Part shown: piece by piece, positions 736 to 10,524 of the stretch | How positions within the stretch are numbered: position 1 is the first letter of the stretch | How the letters are laid out: each line of letters begins with the position of its first letter | Virus record (IMG/VR): IMGVR_UViG_2690316115_000019 | Length of the DNA stretch: 11,059 bases | Direction: 5' to 3' (one strand) | Source: a virus | Lineage: Duplodnaviria > Heunggongvirae > Uroviricota > Caudoviricetes | Notes under the pieces: generated by a model | Told to the model about the DNA's origin: nothing | Databases searched by the model: none | Seen by the model: only the letters and a program-made list of their open reading frames with translations | Program-made: the position numbers and the translations under genes

Positions 736-927
736 TTAAAGACCTGCCGGGATTTCGATATTATCCTGGTGAATAACTTTATCGACCGGGTAACAGTTAC
801 CGGGAATTTTCTGTTCGGTTGCTGCAGTCATACACTCCTGCATTGTCCTGTGAACACTGACTGCAATATCAACTGGCTCTCCGGAAACAAGAAAAACTGT
901 CAGAACAAGTGCAAATGCTGTATTCAT
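736..927 (-). CDS. ydfD: YdfD-like small protein (63 aa) with N-terminal hydrophobic/signal-like segment
   Basis: Internal ATG of ORF 736..981 with AGGA upstream. Its start overlaps the dicB stop in an ATGA arrangement (925-927 versus 924-926), suggesting translational coupling. N-terminus MNTAFALVLTVFLVSG is hydrophobic. Size and position match ydfD of the Qin dicB operon (recalled). Confidence 0.55.
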   Translation of the reverse strand: MNTAFALVLTVFLVSGEPVDIAVSVHRTMQECMTAATEQKIPGNCYPVDKVIHQDNIEIPAGL

Positions 928-1112
928 TGCCAGCATCCTTTTTGTATCGGACGTAAACGGGCCAGCATTGAAAGAATGCATATTTTATTTAATAACTCCC
1001 GTTCGTGTTTTCTCTTGTTAATGGCATCTTCAGTAAATACAGGGTTACTGATAGTGACACCAATTTCAAAACAACCTTCAGACGTATTAACGTTTGGTAA
1101 TAACGTTTCCAT
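924..1112 (-). CDS. dicB: DicB cell-division inhibitor (62 aa)
   Basis: Internal ATG at 1110-1112 of ORF 924..1217 with GAGGA 8 nt upstream. Protein METLLPNVNTSEGCFEIGVTISNPVFTEDAINKRKHERELLNKICILSMLARLRPIQKGCWQ closely matches my recollection of E. coli DicB (MKTLLPNVNTSEGCFEIGVTISNPVF...). It lies about 170 nt downstream of the DicF-like RNA, as in Qin. Confidence 0.75.
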   Translation of the reverse strand: METLLPNVNTSEGCFEIGVTISNPVFTEDAINKRKHERELLNKICILSMLARLRPIQKGCWQ

Positions 1113-1281: not shown

Positions 1282-1339
1282 AAAAAGGGCGGCAGAGCAG
1301 TCACGGAGTAGAACTGATACCGCCAAAAGTCACCAGAAA
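1282..1339 (-). ncRNA. dicF: DicF-like small regulatory RNA with 3' intrinsic terminator
   Basis: Reverse complement of 1282-1339 is TTTCTGGTGACTTTTGGCGGTATCAGTTCTACTCCGTGACTGCTCTGCCGCCCTTTTT. This differs at about two positions from the DicF sequence as I recall it and ends in GCCGCCC plus a T-run. Position between a 72-aa gene and dicB matches the Qin dicB operon. Confidence 0.75.
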
Positions 1340-1680: not shown

Positions 1681-1899
1681 TTAACGCGGGTATGTAATCA
1701 TTCTGGCAATGCTTAATGCCGCTGCTTTTTCCAGCCTGGTGATATCCTGCTCCAGAGCGGACAGATTTTCAGCCTGCTTAGCCCTGGCTTCATTGGCCCA
1801 TTTCAGGTCCTGCGCTGCCTTAATTTTCTGGTGCATCCACTCATAAAGTTCATCATCGGTATAGTCTGGCGCGATGATGACGGGTTCTCGTTTCTGCAT
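1681..1899 (-). CDS. Small charged, probably coiled-coil protein (72 aa); possible YdfC-like gene preceding DicF
   Basis: ATG at 1897-1899 with consensus AAGGAG 5 nt upstream. It is the same size as, and in the same position relative to DicF as, ydfC in Qin. Assignment is by size and position only, not sequence. Confidence 0.55.
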   Translation of the reverse strand: MQKREPVIIAPDYTDDELYEWMHQKIKAAQDLKWANEARAKQAENLSALEQDITRLEKAAALSIARMITYPR

Positions 1900-1991
1900 G
1901 TCGGCTCCTTGTGGTTAGCGTTGCCTGCTTTTAACCACGTCAGGCGAGGTGGTATCCTCTGAGGGGTCTGTTACTCGAGAGGAAATTGGTT

Positions 1992-2192
1992 ATGAATACA
2001 ATCAAGTTTTCTTGCCCAGAATGTGGCGGCGAAGTCTTTGACACATCCTTTAAACCGCATGGCTCTGACAGTTTCGCGGGAGCCATCTGCAAAAATTGTG
2101 GTCACCTTGTAACTGAAGATGAGTCCTCGCAGTTTGATGACGAAATCGTTGACAATATCTTCGGTGCACTCACCAGAGACTTTCTGAAGTAA
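1992..2192 (+). CDS. Small zinc-ribbon protein (two CxxC pairs: CPECGG...CKNCGH), acidic C-terminus
   Basis: ATG at 1992 preceded by GAGAGGAAA. CxxC-x24-CxxC arrangement. It is oriented opposite to the surrounding minus-strand operon and conflicts with minus ORF 1971..2327, so it is uncertain. Confidence 0.4.
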   Translation: MNTIKFSCPECGGEVFDTSFKPHGSDSFAGAICKNCGHLVTEDESSQFDDEIVDNIFGALTRDFLK

Positions 2193-2227: not shown

Positions 2228-2416
2228 TTACCTGTCCGGCAATGGCGCTGATATCAATATAAAGCGCCATCGCTGTTTCTTTGCTGATCCCTGGATGCCT
2301 TCCATTCTGATGTTTGACTTCGCCCACTGAGAAATCCTCTGTTTCCCCTTAACGCCGGGGTAGCGGAACAAAAAACCTGCTGCATAGTTAAACGTAATCC
2401 CCGCCGTCATGTTCAT
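2228..2416 (-). CDS. Possible small basic protein just downstream (minus strand) of the left operator-like region, at the ydfA/ydfB position; low confidence
   Basis: 62-aa ORF on the track. GAGG lies close to the first ATG and a second ATG follows at 2408-2410. No recognisable domain. Confidence 0.2.
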   Translation of the reverse strand: MNMTAGITFNYAAGFLFRYPGVKGKQRISQWAKSNIRMEGIQGSAKKQRWRFILISAPLPDR

Positions 2417-2506
2417 ACGCCTCAGGCTGGCTACTTAACCCCTGACCACTGCCGGGTAACTCGAAGTATTGCCCTGCGTTCTGTGGGGCGGGGTGGGTTT
2501 ATGGAT

Positions 2507-2563
2507 ACAATTTACAAATTAAAATTTAACCGGTCAACATGTTTATTATTAAATTTGTAATTG
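2507..2563. promoter_or_regulatory. Operator-like region (OL-like) with half-sites TTACAAAT (2512-2519) and ATTTGTAA (2553-2560), sharing a 14-bp exact match with the immunity-region operators
   Basis: TTAAATTTGTAATT at 2549-2562 is identical to 3791-3804. TTACAAAT at 2512-2519 is identical to 3765-3772. AATTTACAAATT (2509-2520) is itself near-palindromic. It lies upstream of higB and at the head of the leftward dicB-type operon. Confidence 0.45.
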
Positions 2564-2605
2564 CGAGCTGTTGCATCAGTCCCAAAATGGGACTACTATA
2601 CAGTT

Positions 2606-2908
2606 ATGAAGATTATCTCAGTTAAAACACTCAGGGATTTTTGGGCGGAGAATCCTGATGCAGAACAACCGCTAAGGGCATGGGTGGATGAGGCGGCAAA
2701 AGCTGACTGGAAAAGCCCAGCAGACATTAAGGCACAATACCGAACGGCCAGTATATTGAAAAACCGGCGCGTGGTATTCAACATAAAAGGTAATCATTAC
2801 CGTTTAATTGTTGCAATTGCGTATCAGCGAGGATGGGTATTTGTTAAATTCATCGGAAACCACAAGGAATACGATACTATTGATGCTGATACCATCGAAC
2901 TGGAGTAA
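2606..2908 (+). CDS. higB: HigB-family type II toxin (mRNA interferase, RelE/ParE superfamily)
   Basis: 100 aa from ATG 2606. C-terminal pattern FNIKGNHYRLIVAIAYQRGWVFVKFIGNHKEYD resembles E. coli HigB/YgjN (GN..R....V.FIGTHKEYD). It is followed 2 nt later by a HigA-like gene. No clear Shine-Dalgarno, so the start is uncertain (track ORF begins at a TTG at 2561). Confidence 0.75.
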   Translation: MKIISVKTLRDFWAENPDAEQPLRAWVDEAAKADWKSPADIKAQYRTASILKNRRVVFNIKGNHYRLIVAIAYQRGWVFVKFIGNHKEYDTIDADTIELE

Positions 2909-2910
2909 GC

Positions 2911-3270
2911 ATGAACATCAAACCTATTCGTACAGAGCAAGATTATGAAGCCGCGTTGCGTGCTGTTGAACCCATGTTCGACAATGAGCCCGAAATTGAC
3001 ACGCCTGAGGGGGATTTTTTTGAGGTGATGTGTTTGCTAATAGAGGAATATGAAAAAAAACATTATCCCATTGAGCCACCATCCCCAATTGAAGCTATAA
3101 GATTTCGCATGGAACAGCAGGGGCTGACTGTGAAAGATTTGGAACCCGCAATTGGGAAAAAAAATCGGGTTTATGAGGTGTTGAATGGTACCAGAAGCCT
3201 TACGTTACCAATGATTCGCCGTCTTCATAATCAATTTGGTATCCCCCTGGAAAGCCTGGTTGGATTATAA
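2911..3270 (+). CDS. higA: HigA-family antitoxin (XRE-type helix-turn-helix)
   Basis: 119 aa. C-terminal helix-turn-helix segment LTLPMIRRLHNQFGIPLESL resembles E. coli HigA/YgjM (LTLEHAKKLATRFGISPALF). Toxin-first gene order with a 2-nt gap is typical of higBA. Confidence 0.75.
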   Translation: MNIKPIRTEQDYEAALRAVEPMFDNEPEIDTPEGDFFEVMCLLIEEYEKKHYPIEPPSPIEAIRFRMEQQGLTVKDLEPAIGKKNRVYEVLNGTRSLTLPMIRRLHNQFGIPLESLVGL

Positions 3271-3286
3271 AATCTGCTAGTCATTT

Positions 3287-3335
3287 GCCTGATGCTCGTT
3301 CCAGAAAAGGAATGCATCAGGCAGTTTTGTTTTTC
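3287..3335 (+). terminator. Intrinsic terminator after higA; overlaps the 3' end of the convergent repressor gene
   Basis: 9-bp inverted repeat GCCTGATGC (3287-3295) / GCATCAGGC (3313-3321), followed by AGTTTTGTTTTTCT (3322-3335). Confidence 0.55.
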
Positions 3336-3709
3336 TGCCGCAGTAACTCTTCAAGTTTCCGTTTATAGAAATCGCGTTTTTGCTCCATATCACGAATGAT
3401 CTGCTCTGCGTCGCTTTGAGGTAACTCATCTAAAAGCGATATGATTTTTCGTTGTTGTTCTGTAAGTTGCGGTTGGTTGTCATTACTGGATACAGCCATT
3501 TTATCGCCGAGAGTTTCTTCTTCCATAAAGAACCAATGGACGGGATGTTGTGAGAGCTCTGCTAATTTTTCCAGTTTATCCATTCTTGGCATCACGCCTT
3601 TCAACCAACCTTGCACGGATTGGGGTTTTACACCAAGACGTCTTCCCAGCTCTGACTGGTTTATATTCAATTCCTGCAACACCTGCTGAAGGCGTTTTAC
3701 AAAGATCAT
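3317..3709 (-). CDS. DicA/CI-like prophage repressor (N-terminal helix-turn-helix, C-terminal dimerisation-like region)
   Basis: ATG at 3707-3709 with GAGGGG upstream (track ORF starts two GTG codons earlier). Segment NQSELGRRLGVKPQSVQGWLKG is a helix-turn-helix. The C-terminal LTEQQRKIISLLDELPQSDAEQ...KLEELLRQK aligns with the DicA C-terminus as recalled. It is divergent from a Cro-like gene. Confidence 0.75.
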   Translation of the reverse strand: MIFVKRLQQVLQELNINQSELGRRLGVKPQSVQGWLKGVMPRMDKLEKLAELSQHPVHWFFMEEETLGDKMAVSSNDNQPQLTEQQRKIISLLDELPQSDAEQIIRDMEQKRDFYKRKLEELLRQKNKTA

Positions 3710-3763
3710 CACCACCCCTCGTAAACTAGTTCCGCGATCCTACAGAAAAAATTGATAAGTGGC

Positions 3764-3804
3764 ATTACAAATAGAAGTTGAAATTTAAATTTAAATTTGT
3801 AATT
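3764..3804. promoter_or_regulatory. Immunity-region operator/promoter block (OR-like) between the divergent repressor and cro-like genes
   Basis: ATTACAAAT (3764-3772) and ATTTGTAAT (3795-3803) are inverted copies. Tandem AAATTT repeats lie at 3781-3798. A candidate rightward promoter has -35 TTGAAA (3778-3783) and -10 AATTAT (3801-3806) overlapping the right site. GGAGGG precedes the ATG at 3836. Confidence 0.55.
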
Positions 3805-3835
3805 ATCGGTGTCATCGTAAAGTTCGGAGGGAAAC

Positions 3836-4096
3836 ATGCAAAAAAGTACTCAAGTGAAAATCCTGTCAATAATGAGCCAATCAGAATTAGGGCGTCGTCT
3901 TGGTAAAACACCGCAAACCATAAGTGGGTGGTTTAAAAAACGAGTGCCAGCGGAGGAGGTTATACCAGCATGTGAGGCGCTTGACTGGGGAGTAACTCCG
4001 CATGAATTGCGCCCTGATAAATACCCTAATCCAACCGATGGTTTACCTGTTGAGTATCAGGCTAACGCACAAGCAGCGGCGGGAGTTGATTCATGA
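3836..4096 (+). CDS. Cro-like helix-turn-helix regulator of the YdaS/DicC family
   Basis: 86 aa with a GGAGGG RBS. SQSELGRRLGKTPQTISGWFKK...ACEALDWGVTPHELRPD resembles Rac YdaS (recalled). Confidence 0.7.
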   Translation: MQKSTQVKILSIMSQSELGRRLGKTPQTISGWFKKRVPAEEVIPACEALDWGVTPHELRPDKYPNPTDGLPVEYQANAQAAAGVDS

Positions 4097-4518
4097 AAAT
4101 CAAGCATGAACACATCCGCATGGCGATGAATGTCTGGGCGCATCCGGACGGCGAAAAAGTGCCGGCTGCGAAAATTACCAAAGCGTATTTCGAGCTGGGA
4201 ATGACGTTCCCGGAACTGTATGACGACAGCCATCCGGAAGCCCTGGCCCGTAATACCCAGAAAATTTTCCGTTGGCTGGATAAAGACACCCCTGATGCTG
4301 TTGAAAAAATGCAGGCTCTGTTACCGGCGATCGAAAAGGCGATGCCGCCTTTGCTGGTGGCCCGTATGCGCAGCCACAGTTCTGAATATTACCGTGAGAT
4401 CGTCGAACGGAGGGATCGGCTGGTGAAGGATGTCGATGATTTTGTTGCGTCAGCGGTTGTTTTGTATGACCAGATGAATCGCGGCGGCCCGGCAGGGAAT
4501 GCTGTGGTGATGCACTAA
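4093..4518 (+). CDS. YdaT-like protein (CII-like regulator/toxin family of Rac-type prophages)
   Basis: 141 aa. Its start overlaps the upstream stop (ATGA at 4093-4096). N-terminus MKIKHEHI matches my recollection of YdaT. GGGAG RBS. Confidence 0.6.
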   Translation: MKIKHEHIRMAMNVWAHPDGEKVPAAKITKAYFELGMTFPELYDDSHPEALARNTQKIFRWLDKDTPDAVEKMQALLPAIEKAMPPLLVARMRSHSSEYYREIVERRDRLVKDVDDFVASAVVLYDQMNRGGPAGNAVVMH

Positions 4519-7642: not shown

Positions 7643-8329
7643 ATGACCCCAATAAAAATATTTATGACTATTGCTGATTTCAAACGGCCTAAATTGGAGC
7701 TTCCAAACGGGGCAAACAAACTACTACTGCACTCTTGCTGTGCTCCATGTTCCGGTGAAGTGATGGAGGCGCTTCAGGCCTCGGGAATCGACTACACCAT
7801 CTTTTTCTACAACCCGAACATTCATCCTCAGAAAGAGTATTTAATTCGTAAGGATGAAAATATTCGCTTTGCTGAACAACACGGCGTGCCGTTTATCGAT
7901 GCTGATTACGACACCGACAACTGGTTTGAACGTGCCAAAGGAATGGAATGGGAGCCTGAGAGGGGGATCCGTTGTACCATGTGTTTTGACATGCGTTTTG
8001 AGCGGACAGCGTTGTACGCTGCTGAAAATGGTTTCAGTGTGATCAGTAGTTCACTGGGCATTTCACGCTGGAAAAATATGCAGCAGGTTAACGAGTGTGG
8101 GCGGCGAGCTGTTGCGCATTATCCGGGTATGGTGTACTGGGATTATAACTGGCGCAAGCAGGGCGGCTCGTCCCGTATGATTGAAATCAGCAAGCGCGAA
8201 AAATTCTATCAGCAGGAATATTGTGGCTGTGTGTATTCTCTGCGCGATACCAATCTACACCGCAAATCTCAGGGACGCCCTCTTATCAAAATTGGCCAAC
8301 TCCACTACGGAAAAGAAGAGAAGGAGTGA
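7643..8329 (+). CDS. QueH-like (DUF208) protein, putative Fe-S epoxyqueuosine reductase family
   Basis: Motifs [11 protein letters not shown] near the N-terminus, CTMCFD mid-protein and [10 protein letters not shown] near the C-terminus fit DUF208/QueH as I recall it. The start could be ATG 7643 or 7664; neither has a good RBS. Confidence 0.6.
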
Positions 8330-8399
8330 TTTTATGGATCACCTTTCTGATTGATTTCATATTGGCGAGGTGACGTGAGTTAAGTAGAATTGCTGCGGG

Positions 8400-8424
8400 T
8401 GCCTGAGGCTGTCTGCCTCAGGCA
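8400..8424. repeat. Perfect 10-bp inverted repeat (TGCCTGAGGC ... GCCTCAGGCA) with 5-nt loop, between the QueH-like and methyltransferase genes; no T-tract
   Basis: 8400-8409 and 8415-8424 are exact reverse complements. No U-run follows on either strand, so it is not a canonical intrinsic terminator. Confidence 0.5.
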
Positions 8425-8507
8425 TGAACACCAAAAGGCAGATAGAGAAAGCCCCAGTTAACATTACGCGTCCTGTAAGACGCTCAACATTAATCTGAGG
8501 CATATGG

Positions 8508-9632
8508 ATGCGGATGAAAGAATTAAATAAATTCAGAGTGATAGACCTCTTTTGTGGGGCAGGTGGATTATCTTATGGTTTTCTTCATGGAGAGATGTCT
8601 GACTACTTTGAAAGTATCCTTGCTATTGATAATAATGCTGCAGCTATAAATACCTACAATGCCAATTTTGGTTTGCATGGAGTTCAGGCAAATATTGAGG
8701 AGTGGGCATCCAGCAATACTGTTCCTGAGGCTGATGTGGTCATAGGTGGCCCCCCGTGTCAGGGATTCAGTTTATTGAATAAGAATCGTTATGGTGATCA
8801 CCGAAGAGCATTGTGGGAGCCTTATATGGATGTCATTGAGCGTTCAAGGGCTTGTATGTTCGTCATGGAAAATGTCCCCGGATTGCTGATAAGCGATGAG
8901 TTTGCGGACATTACGTTTAGAGCGAAATCCATGGGCTTTATTCTGCTTAATCCAATGGTGTTGAATACTGCTGACTATGGAGTACCTCAGACAAGAAAAC
9001 GAACGATAGCAATCGGTATCAAACGAGAACTCTTCGATGTGCATAGTATTCCGGCGTTCCCGCCAGCACCAACGCATCGTTCCCCTGATAAGGATGTCGC
9101 TTTGCCTGAATGGGTCTGTACGCGTGATGCAATTGGTGACTTACCTGCTCCTGTTGGAACTGATATTCGTAATGAACTTCCTCCGCTGAACTTACATTTT
9201 GGGCGTAATCCCACTCCTGTTTCTCTGGAGCGATATAAAGCGGTTCCACCAGGAGGTAACCGTTTCGATTTACAGAAAAAAAGACCTGATATAACCCCGG
9301 CGTGCTGGCTAAAAAAGAAATCTGGAGGGACCGATTTGTTTGGACGTCTGTGGTGGGACAAACCTTCAGTAACGATTCGTACTGAGTTTTTCAAACCGGA
9401 GAAAGGGCGATATTTACATCCGGAAGAGGATCGGCCAATAACTCATCGTGAGGCAGCGAGATTAATGTCTTTTCCTGATAATTTCATTTTTACCGGTTCA
9501 AAAACTGAGATTGCAAAGCAGATCGGGAATGCTGTTCCACCGCTATTTGCGGCAAAAATCGCACAATATGTGTATGGAGTTTTGCAGGGACGGTATAAGA
9601 ATAACATCAGTAAGAATAGTCAAGCAGCCTGA
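8508..9632 (+). CDS. DNA (cytosine-5)-methyltransferase
   Basis: Motif I DLFCGAGGLSYGF, motif IV GGPPCQGFS, motif VI ENVPGL, motif X QIGNAVPP. GAGG RBS 8 nt before ATG 8508. Confidence 0.9.
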   Translation: MRMKELNKFRVIDLFCGAGGLSYGFLHGEMSDYFESILAIDNNAAAINTYNANFGLHGVQANIEEWASSNTVPEADVVIGGPPCQGFSLLNKNRYGDHRRALWEPYMDVIERSRACMFVMENVPGLLISDEFADITFRAKSMGFILLNPMVLNTADYGVPQTRKRTIAIGIKRELFDVHSIPAFPPAPTHRSPDKDVALPEWVCTRDAIGDLPAPVGTDIRNELPPLNLHFGRNPTPVSLERYKAVPPGGNRFDLQKKRPDITPACWLKKKSGGTDLFGRLWWDKPSVTIRTEFFKPEKGRYLHPEEDRPITHREAARLMSFPDNFIFTGSKTEIAKQIGNAVPPLFAAKIAQYVYGVLQGRYKNNISKNSQAA

Positions 9633-9645
9633 AGGAAATCCAGAA

Positions 9646-10524
9646 ATGAATGGAGATTTGGTTGACAGCATAGTTGGTTTTGCTGAAGCCAGAAAGGAGT
9701 TTCATGCCCAATTGTTACTGAATACGCTCACAATTAATACTGCCGGAGTTGTTAGTAACGCAGATAGCAGTAACAAAAACAGTAAAGCTATAGCAAGAGA
9801 AATTGCTCGCTTCTTGCAGGCTGAAACGATTGGTGAACGTGTTGCAGGGCAAACATCTGGTAATCAGTTTGAGAGTATCTGCGCAGAGTTTATAGAAAAA
9901 ACCTTTTTTAAACTCAGCCACTTACGCCCTGGAAAATGGAATGTACATCAGGTTTCTGGTAGAAACAGATTAGAGATAGCTAAATATGAACAATATGCCC
10001 ATCTTATAGCATTGGATAGTGCTGCAAAAAGTAATCCTCAGCTAGCTGCTGCACTGGGGAGTGATTATACGATTTCACCAGATATTATTGTTGAAAGAGA
10101 ACCTGAATGTGATCAAGTTATCAACAGTCCTGAATTACTGGTGGATGATTCTGTTACCCGCATGTCAGCTCTCAGGAGTTCGAATGGTGGGAAACCAATA
10201 TTACACGCAAGTATTTCCTGCAAATGGACAATAAGAAGCGACCGGGCCCAGAATGCTCGTTCTGAGGCATTAAATCTTATTCGCAACCGTAAGGGAAATC
10301 TCCCTCATGTAATGGTTGTTACTGCTGAGCCTACTCCAAGTCGTCTGGCGTCTATTGCTCTTGGTACTGGTGATATAGATTGCGTGTATCATTTTGCGCT
10401 TTATGAACTTATATCAGCAGTTGAAATACTGGGGCTCAGCGATGCAGCTGACATGCTTTCCGTGATGGTTAATGGTAAAAGATTAAAGGATATTTCTGAT
10501 CTTCCCTTGGATCTTGCAGTCTGA
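9646..10524 (+). CDS. Putative type II restriction endonuclease, Cfr10I/NgoMIV/Bse634I-like active-site arrangement
   Basis: ATG 9646 with GAAGGAAA RBS, 13 nt after the methyltransferase stop. The spacing of putative catalytic residues is PD (SPDIIV), then S-x-K (ISCKW) 45-47 residues later, then E exactly 14 residues after the K (RSEALN), as in Cfr10I-family enzymes (recalled). Gene is AT-rich. Confidence 0.55.
   Translation: MNGDLVDSIVGFAEARKEFHAQLLLNTLTINTAGVVSNADSSNKNSKAIAREIARFLQAETIGERVAGQTSGNQFESICAEFIEKTFFKLSHLRPGKWNVHQVSGRNRLEIAKYEQYAHLIALDSAAKSNPQLAAALGSDYTISPDIIVEREPECDQVINSPELLVDDSVTRMSALRSSNGGKPILHASISCKWTIRSDRAQNARSEALNLIRNRKGNLPHVMVVTAEPTPSRLASIALGTGDIDCVYHFALYELISAVEILGLSDAADMLSVMVNGKRLKDISDLPLDLAV

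Follow-up and report, generated by a model that had tools for sequence, protein, structure and literature searches.

The segment 2500–4087 of the window (the whole stretch of DNA that was analysed, 11,059 nucleotides) is, in our opinion and with a probability of roughly 85%, an immunity cassette of the Rac/Qin/CP-933P type, as comparison with related prophages indicates; the repeats found in it would be the OL and OR operators, and a separate higBA toxin–antitoxin module would be lodged between them. The proposed order is PL/OL, higBA, a gene of a DicA-like repressor, OR and a cro-like ydaS gene. The repressor of 130 amino acids and, by analogy, also a Cro protein of the YdaS type would bind all four putative operator sites, two of them in OL (2510–2523 and 2549–2562) and two in OR (3763–3776 and 3791–3804). 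Such binding would shut both PL, driving the ydfC-dicF-dicB operon, and PR, driving ydaS, ydaT and the replication genes. The higBA module (approximately 2563–3335) would be a separate cassette, bounded by OL on one side and by the 3' end of the repressor gene on the other. Its own promoter, with a HigA palindrome in the spacer, would send transcription toward the repressor gene and away from PL, and the transcript would stop at its own terminator.

The host element is a lambdoid prophage of E. coli of the Rac/Qin/CP-933P type. On the minus strand to the left of the cassette lie a ydfC-like gene, the DicF small RNA (1287–1338), dicB and a DUF1482 gene; an O-like gene and a DnaC-like gene are found to the right of it. 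The main components of the immunity region and of its borders are as follows.

2342–2499, minus strand: conserved leader of the leftward early transcript (PL or dicBp type), found by megablast; left boundary of the exchangeable cassette
3317–3709, minus strand: gene of the immunity repressor, 130 amino acids, with an N-terminal HTH_3 domain and a C-terminal region resembling that of DicA; devoid of a peptidase domain
3836–4096, plus strand: cro-like gene with an HTH of the YdaS family (PF15943, 34.6 bits; phrog_35)
4093–4518: YdaT/CII-like gene
4086–4103, plus strand: YdaT box, TTGATT-N6-AATCAA, containing the start codon of ydaT

Of the 5426 complete E. coli genomes compared by megablast, 3736 contain the leader, which stands there beside many different repressors, and similarity to other immunity types was shown to break at about 2499 and to return at about 4087, the latter being the right end of the cassette. 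The left motif region belongs to the exchangeable immunity cassette, because it starts exactly where the leader ends (2499). Judged from these alignments, the region 2505–2562 is the outer edge of this cassette and lies outside both the conserved backbone and the higBA cassette; similarity to the plasmid homologues of higBA starts only at 2578–2603. The YdaT box is identical in sequence to the published box of Rac and CP-933P (PMC11879457).

The start codon of the repressor was taken from the RefSeq annotation of an identical gene. The protein shares 22% identity with K-12 DicA over the full length and gives a full-length match of 49.9 bits to the NCBIfam DicA model (NF007257), which is below the curated cut-off of 101 bits. 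Its membership in the DicA subfamily was rejected on this score, and the protein should be regarded as having a DicA-like architecture and not as a DicA orthologue. Its gene, divergent from the gene of the YdaS family and separated from it by about 120 bp, is preceded by a GAGG ribosome-binding site, and because of this site the repressor is probably not translated from a leaderless message, unlike cI and paaR2.

The two regions that flank higBA and the repressor gene have a repeated motif in common. As the original prediction had it, the 14-mer TTAAATTTGTAATT occurs exactly at 2549–2562 and at 3791–3804, on the plus strand in both cases; a third copy, with two mismatches, is located on the minus strand at 2510–2523. 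The positions given there for the shorter word TTACAAAT, 2512–2519 and 3765–3772, were also confirmed, and each of these copies has an inverted partner. The left pair consists of 2512–2519 (plus) and 2553–2560 (minus), 41 bp apart from centre to centre, and the right one of 3765–3772 (plus) and 3795–3802 (minus), 30 bp apart, so that the two spacings differ by about one helical turn. These four exact copies, against 0.57 expected, are the only ones in the 11-kb window. With up to three mismatches allowed, 9 matches to the 14-mer were counted window-wide, where 1.8 would be expected; 8 of these fall inside the two motif regions.

It might be supposed that the repeat is a by-product of AT-rich intergenic DNA of low complexity, or the scar of a duplication, and has no binding function. 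Both regions are indeed AT-rich and contain (AAATTT)n-like tracts, but this explanation is extremely improbable. Chance is excluded because none of 3000 composition-matched, first-order Markov simulations of the two AT-rich segments gave a common word of at least 14 letters; the longest had 13, and common words of at least 11 letters appeared with a probability of 0.014. As a host control, 200 kb of a genome carrying a 2.7-kb region of the window at 100% identity were taken. In this sample, TTACAAAT has 8 copies outside the immunity region, i.e., about one per 25 kb, and even in the segments with at least 70% A+T (21 kb) only 2 copies were found, about one per 10 kb. The motif does not, in these 200 kb, recur at an equal frequency across AT-rich host DNA, and inverted pairs of the form TACAAAT-N15-45-ATTTGTA were absent from the sample outside the two sites of the immunity region. 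Together, the simulations and the host sample rule out chance or AT-richness as the origin of the motif.

Natural variation speaks against a functionless repeat as well. Among 12 sequence variants of the cassette, obtained from 23 IMG/VR loci and going down to about 91% identity, the segments 2513–2529, 2548–2553 together with 2555–2557, 3764–3783 and 3791–3799 are invariant. The right core of OL (2548–2559) is changed at two positions only, each in one variant. The flanks do vary; for example, 2563–2570, the most variable part of the region, is changed in up to 6 of 11 variants. Prophages with other repressors, considered below, follow the same two-position logic with different motifs.

If the repeats are operators, their places relative to the promoters are of importance. 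The sites and the candidate promoters are the following.

2509–2537, minus strand: candidate PL promoter from a consensus scan, with the −35 element TTGACC at 2537–2532, a 17-nt spacer and the −10 element TAAATT at 2514–2509
2510–2523, minus strand: putative OL site A, TTTAATTTGTAAAT, with two mismatches to the 14-mer; overlaps the −10 element and the spacer of PL
2549–2562, plus strand: putative OL site B, TTAAATTTGTAATT, upstream of the PL −35 element and 8 bp upstream of the −35 element of higBA
3763–3776, minus strand: putative OR site D, TTCTATTTGTAATG, with three mismatches to the 14-mer
3791–3804, plus strand: putative OR site C, TTAAATTTGTAATT, overlapping the spacer and the −10 element of PR
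3778–3806, plus strand: candidate PR promoter from a consensus scan, TTGAAA-17-AATTAT, with TG right before the −10 element
3788–3815, minus strand: candidate PRM-like promoter, ATGACA-16-TAAATT, from the scan only; weak and uncertain

PL and PR were called as consensus matches only (9 of 12). PL is predicted to start at about 2502, just where the conserved leader begins, and the TTGAC of this promoter is invariant in the 12 variants of the cassette. When each core is read on its own strand, PL and PR agree at 13 of the 14 positions that lie upstream of GTAA. In each region, one copy of the operator lies over the −10 element and spacer, and its inverted partner is placed upstream of the −35 element; sites D and C of OR form a 40-bp near-palindrome (3764–3803). 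There are two clear sites per side, not three, plus AAATTT tracts, and no compact palindromes of 14–18 bp, such as those of classical lambdoid operators, were present at the candidate sites. The scan revealed no convincing PRM-like promoter for the repressor, only the weak candidate listed above. With spacings of 30 and 41 bp, both sites of a pair would lie on one face of the helix, an arrangement suggestive of cooperative binding. We infer the binder of the sites, the activity of the promoters and the cooperativity.

The same two positions, namely the first bases past the conserved leader and the intergenic region between the repressor and cro genes, were compared in other prophages. The comparison covered six loci (L003–L008) with five distinct types of repressor, L005 and L007 being identical. 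A motif of its own common to both positions is clear in three of these six loci with other repressors and weak in the other three. It is clear in the RacR type, with a 23-bp mirrored word at both positions, and in the CP-933P type, with mirrored words of 12 and 11 bp and ACTAAACCG. In L004, words of 10 bp are common to both positions, and the locus was counted as weak in the type-level grading. Only 8-bp words, also graded as weak, were found in L005/L007 (AATGTACT/AGTACATT) and in L008 (AATACCCA..GGTA). In the Qin prophage of K-12, TGTTAGTCAT..CTAA clearly occurs at both flanks of dicA. When all left regions were matched against all OR regions, the pair from the same locus was at the top, or tied for it, in each row of the resulting matrix. 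For L005 and L008, where the operators are imperfect palindromes, this exact-word comparison is weak. In the six loci and Qin, the motif differs with the type of repressor, which is the pattern of operators specific for the immunity type.

Published studies on two relatives are of help here. In CP-933P, PaaR2 and YdaS give footprints within the intergenic region that separates the repressor gene from ydaS (PMC8630535), and this 97-bp region matches locus L003. The PL933P region has sites OL1–3 similar to those of OR and is repressed about 100-fold both by PaaR2 and by YdaS (PMC8630535). In Qin, dicBp is repressed by DicA, and both flanks of dicA carry operators (PMC10448788). The boundary of the cassette, the overlap with promoters, the comparison of prophages and these relatives all support the view, expressed in the original prediction, that a single regulator, in the simplest case the DicA/CI-like repressor, would serve both the OL-like and the OR-like region.

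Among complete E. coli genomes, the repressor was found in 148, and the number of chromosomal copies of higBA was also about 148; the carriers among the matches listed are mainly strains of O26, O103, O111 and O45. In IMG/VR, all 23 loci with the repressor carry the whole cassette, including higBA. No relative of the repressor was detected outside E. coli in a scan of one genome per species, and no deposited phage genome holding the cassette was found. A repressor without higBA did not occur among the approximately 148 copies from E. coli and the 23 copies from IMG/VR. The assignment of the sites to the repressor rests on homologues and analogy, because no natural variant separates the repressor from HigA. 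Plasmid homologues of higBA and prophages with other types of repressor were used as a substitute set for comparison.

The toxin–antitoxin module itself comprises the following elements.

2606–2908, plus strand: higB toxin gene, 100 amino acids (PF09907, 113 bits at a cut-off of 27)
2911–3270, plus strand: higA antitoxin gene, 119 amino acids, with a C-terminal HTH (HTH_3, 27.1 bits at a cut-off of 23)
2571–2599, plus strand: inferred higBA promoter, TTGCAT-N17-TACTAT, with the −35 element at 2571–2576; below the threshold of the scan, with the same geometry in homologues
2578–2594, no strand assigned: predicted HigA operator, a perfect palindrome AGTCCCA-AAA-TGGGACT in the promoter spacer
3285–3335, plus strand: intrinsic terminator of higBA, a hairpin at 3285–3324 followed by GTTTTGTTTTT, overlapping the 3' end of the repressor gene

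By their protein families, the two genes probably encode a type II toxin–antitoxin pair of the K-12 HigBA type; the toxin gene comes first and is separated from the antitoxin gene by 2 nt. HigA matches the structures of E. coli K-12 HigA 5IFG and 5YCL with E = 3e-9, and HigB matches the PADLOC profile PD-Lambda-2_A with E = 9e-41. No alternative promoter with an acceptable −10 element was seen further upstream of higBA, either by eye or by the scan. The higB start codon is located 7 nt past the −10 element and has no ribosome-binding site; because of this, the higB mRNA may be leaderless.

The terminator has a predicted folding energy of −26.1 kcal/mol (z = −3.7). Because this strong hairpin and the U tract end the unit at 3285–3335, higBA is, by its sequence, self-contained and convergent with the repressor gene. 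Its opposite orientation and its own terminator set it apart from the repressor, and the two are not co-transcribed. The suggestion that higBA occupies the slot of lambda rexAB, on the opposite strand, holds good, as the module lies between OL and the repressor gene. Its promoter does adjoin an operator, as had been supposed, the −35 element (2571–2576) being 8 bp from 2549–2562.

This proximity brings up the question of whether HigA, or the HigB–HigA complex, and not the repressor recognises the motif at both regions, with cross-talk between the toxin–antitoxin module and the immunity switch, which was the alternative offered in the original prediction. HigA has an HTH and its gene lies between the two regions, the motif at 2549–2562 is situated just 8 bp upstream of the −35 element of higBA, and this type of repressor was never found without higBA in the approximately 148 E. 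coli and 23 IMG/VR copies mentioned above. The operators of HigA homologues, however, are of another kind. Four plasmid homologues, two from E. coli and one each from Citrobacter and Vibrio (55–82% HigA protein or 73–80% nucleotide identity), all have a palindrome xCCCA-N3-TGGGx at the same position upstream of higB, and K-12 higBA has GTTGCCA-N3-TGGCAAC twice; all five fit the general form xCCA-N3-TGGx, and neither TACAAAT nor ATTTGTA is present in any of them. A palindrome of this form is present in the window at 2578–2594. Moreover, prophages without a toxin–antitoxin module and with other repressors still have their own motif, which is clear for the RacR type and for Qin and weak for the remaining ones. 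Recognition of both regions by HigA is not supported, because the HigA operator is of a different type and the homologues lack TTACAAAT; we consider it very unlikely.

Another possibility accepts the sites as true OL and OR operators and adds that the repressor, when bound at OL site B, also co-regulates higBA, this site replacing a missing distal HigA operator. In the plasmid homologues, a second, distal HigA palindrome lies about 30 bp from the proximal one, which alone is present in the window; the distal position is occupied, in exact alignment, by OL site B, 30.5 bp from the centre of the proximal palindrome and 8 bp from the −35 element, and the AT-rich segment 2540–2562 lies at the position of an UP element. 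This arrangement may, however, be a mere recombination junction, the segment 2563–2570 being the most variable one. Furthermore, one variant has a deletion of 1 nt between OL site B and the HigA palindrome, and a site near −50 is not a classical position for an activator or a repressor. On balance, such co-regulation seems unlikely. Slightly less probable again is the wider proposal, drawn from the sequence, that OL site B has taken the place of the distal HigA operator and that higBA, co-regulated by the repressor, may be an addiction or abortive-infection device of the immunity region, set on the lysogenic switch. If this were true, loss or inactivation of the repressor upon induction, immunity-swapping recombination or superinfection would alter the output of HigB and HigA.

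The preferred reading, with operators OL and OR for the repressor and an independent higBA between them, can be compared with several named systems. One of them is CP-933P (Sp12) of E. coli O157:H7, in which the paaR2-paaA2-parE2 genes, ydaS-ydaT and the PL933P region were described by Jurenas et al. in 2021 (PMC8630535). It has the same backbone, with a PL leader 93% identical to that of the window and with matching ydaT, O-like and DnaC-like genes. In both prophages, a toxin–antitoxin module is inserted between the repressor and PL/OL (paaA2-parE2 in CP-933P and HigBA here), operator motifs are common to the PL region and the intergenic region between the repressor and ydaS, and the YdaT box is present. 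At the same time, the repressor of CP-933P is PaaR2, whereas that of the window is DicA-like, and the operator sequence is also different. In addition, paaA2-parE2 is co-transcribed with paaR2, whereas higBA is on the opposite strand and has a promoter, an operator and a terminator of its own.

The dicA-dicC/dicBp region of the K-12 prophage Qin resembles the cassette in the DicA architecture, in a repressor gene divergent from a cro-like gene, in a PL promoter that drives ydfC-dicF-dicB and in operators on either side of that repressor gene. The operator sequence is different, however, and Qin has no cargo between dicA and dicBp, where higBA stands in the window. In the OL-rexB-rexA-cI-OR region of lambda, one motif likewise occurs in two regions that flank the repressor and the cargo and lie over PL and PR. 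However, cI and rexAB of lambda share a transcript, whereas higBA and the repressor gene are convergent; on each side, lambda carries three 17-bp operators and the cassette two clear sites; and the repressor of the window, unlike that of lambda, is devoid of an S24 self-cleavage domain.

With HigBA of the K-12 type (PF09907 toxin; HigA structures 5IFG and 6KML), the module has in common the toxin gene in the first place, the protein families and promoter palindromes CCA-N3-TGG. The K-12 type has two such palindromes and the window one, and the module studied here is embedded in the immunity region of a prophage. PD-lambda-2 is an anti-phage system described by Vassallo et al. in 2022 (PMC9519451). 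HigA matches positions 1–119 of the 402-position profile PD-Lambda-2_B (E = 1.7e-42), and both HigB and HigA are close relatives of parts A and B of this system. Component B of PD-lambda-2 consists of a HigA-like HTH and a C-terminal peptidase, and a component C is also present, whereas in the window a HigA of 119 amino acids is followed by the terminator and the repressor gene. Membership of higBA in PD-lambda-2 was rejected because the peptidase domain and the third gene are absent.

Summarizing the data on related prophages, it may be concluded that the layout of the cassette is already known from them and that its regulatory logic is a textbook one, shown experimentally in close relatives. 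What is added, for an immunity type of which the papers found contain no description, is a definition of its operator motif, of its likely promoters PL and PR and of its boundaries (2500–4087). This immunity type occurs in about 148 complete E. coli genomes and would control the dicF-dicB operon of cell-division inhibitors. For prophages of the Rac/Qin type, there is now a second toxin–antitoxin module, wired differently from the first, in the slot that separates the repressor gene from PL, and the case of higBA supports the view that this slot collects addiction or defence cargo.

Downstream of the candidate PL, the predicted leftward promoter at 2509-2537 (-), lie the DicF small RNA and DicB, and the leftward region comprises the following features.

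924-1112, minus strand: dicB
1287-1338, minus strand: DicF sRNA (Rfam, 71.5 bits)
1681-1899, minus strand: ydfC-like gene
1986-2192, plus strand: gene of an ECs_2282-family CxxC zinc-binding protein
2342-2499: non-coding leader of the leftward transcript, 158 bp

It is probable that a cell-division-inhibitor operon of the dicBF type is kept silent by the DicA-like repressor (3317-3709, minus strand). The leader retains 88–93% identity among prophages with differing repressors. A search of 5426 complete E. coli genomes found it in 3736, many of which carry several copies. The ECs_2282-family gene is antisense and is located inside the region of the leftward early transcript.

At the right-hand end of the immunity cassette, another regulatory element was found.

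4086-4103, plus strand: YdaT box TTGATTCATGAAAATCAA, the spacer of which contains the ydaT ATG

Its form is identical to the site of the YdaT/CII-like activator of Rac and CP-933P (PMC11879457), and this implies a putative PRE-like leftward promoter.

Cargo is present in the right arm of the prophage (7643-10524, plus strand), namely QueH and a type II restriction-modification pair.

7643-8329, plus strand: QueH (epoxyqueuosine reductase)
8397-8577, plus strand: match to sok, the hok/sok antitoxin RNA (Rfam, 61 bits, barely over the gathering score)
8508-9632, plus strand: C5 cytosine DNA methylase ORF of the pair
within 9511-10524, plus strand: NgoMIV-family endonuclease of the pair

The sok match overlaps the start of the methylase ORF. 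On the right-hand side of its replication genes, the host genome with a 100%-identical immunity region has other genes (DUF551, hokD) and lacks QueH, the C5 methylase and the NgoMIV enzyme.

As for higBA, the higB mRNA may be leaderless, because the higB ATG (2606) follows the inferred –10 element TACTAT by 7 nt and is not preceded by a Shine-Dalgarno sequence (window 2594-2608). The same arrangement was found in the plasmid homologues L002 and L037, whereas in a third plasmid homologue, L001, higB is preceded by a 25-nt leader that contains AAGGAA. Among PADLOC profiles, HigB matched PD-Lambda-2_A (E = 9e-41) and HigA matched positions 1-119 of PD-Lambda-2_B (E = 1.7e-42), and HigBA (genes at 2606-3270) is a two-gene version relative to the anti-phage system PD-Lambda-2.
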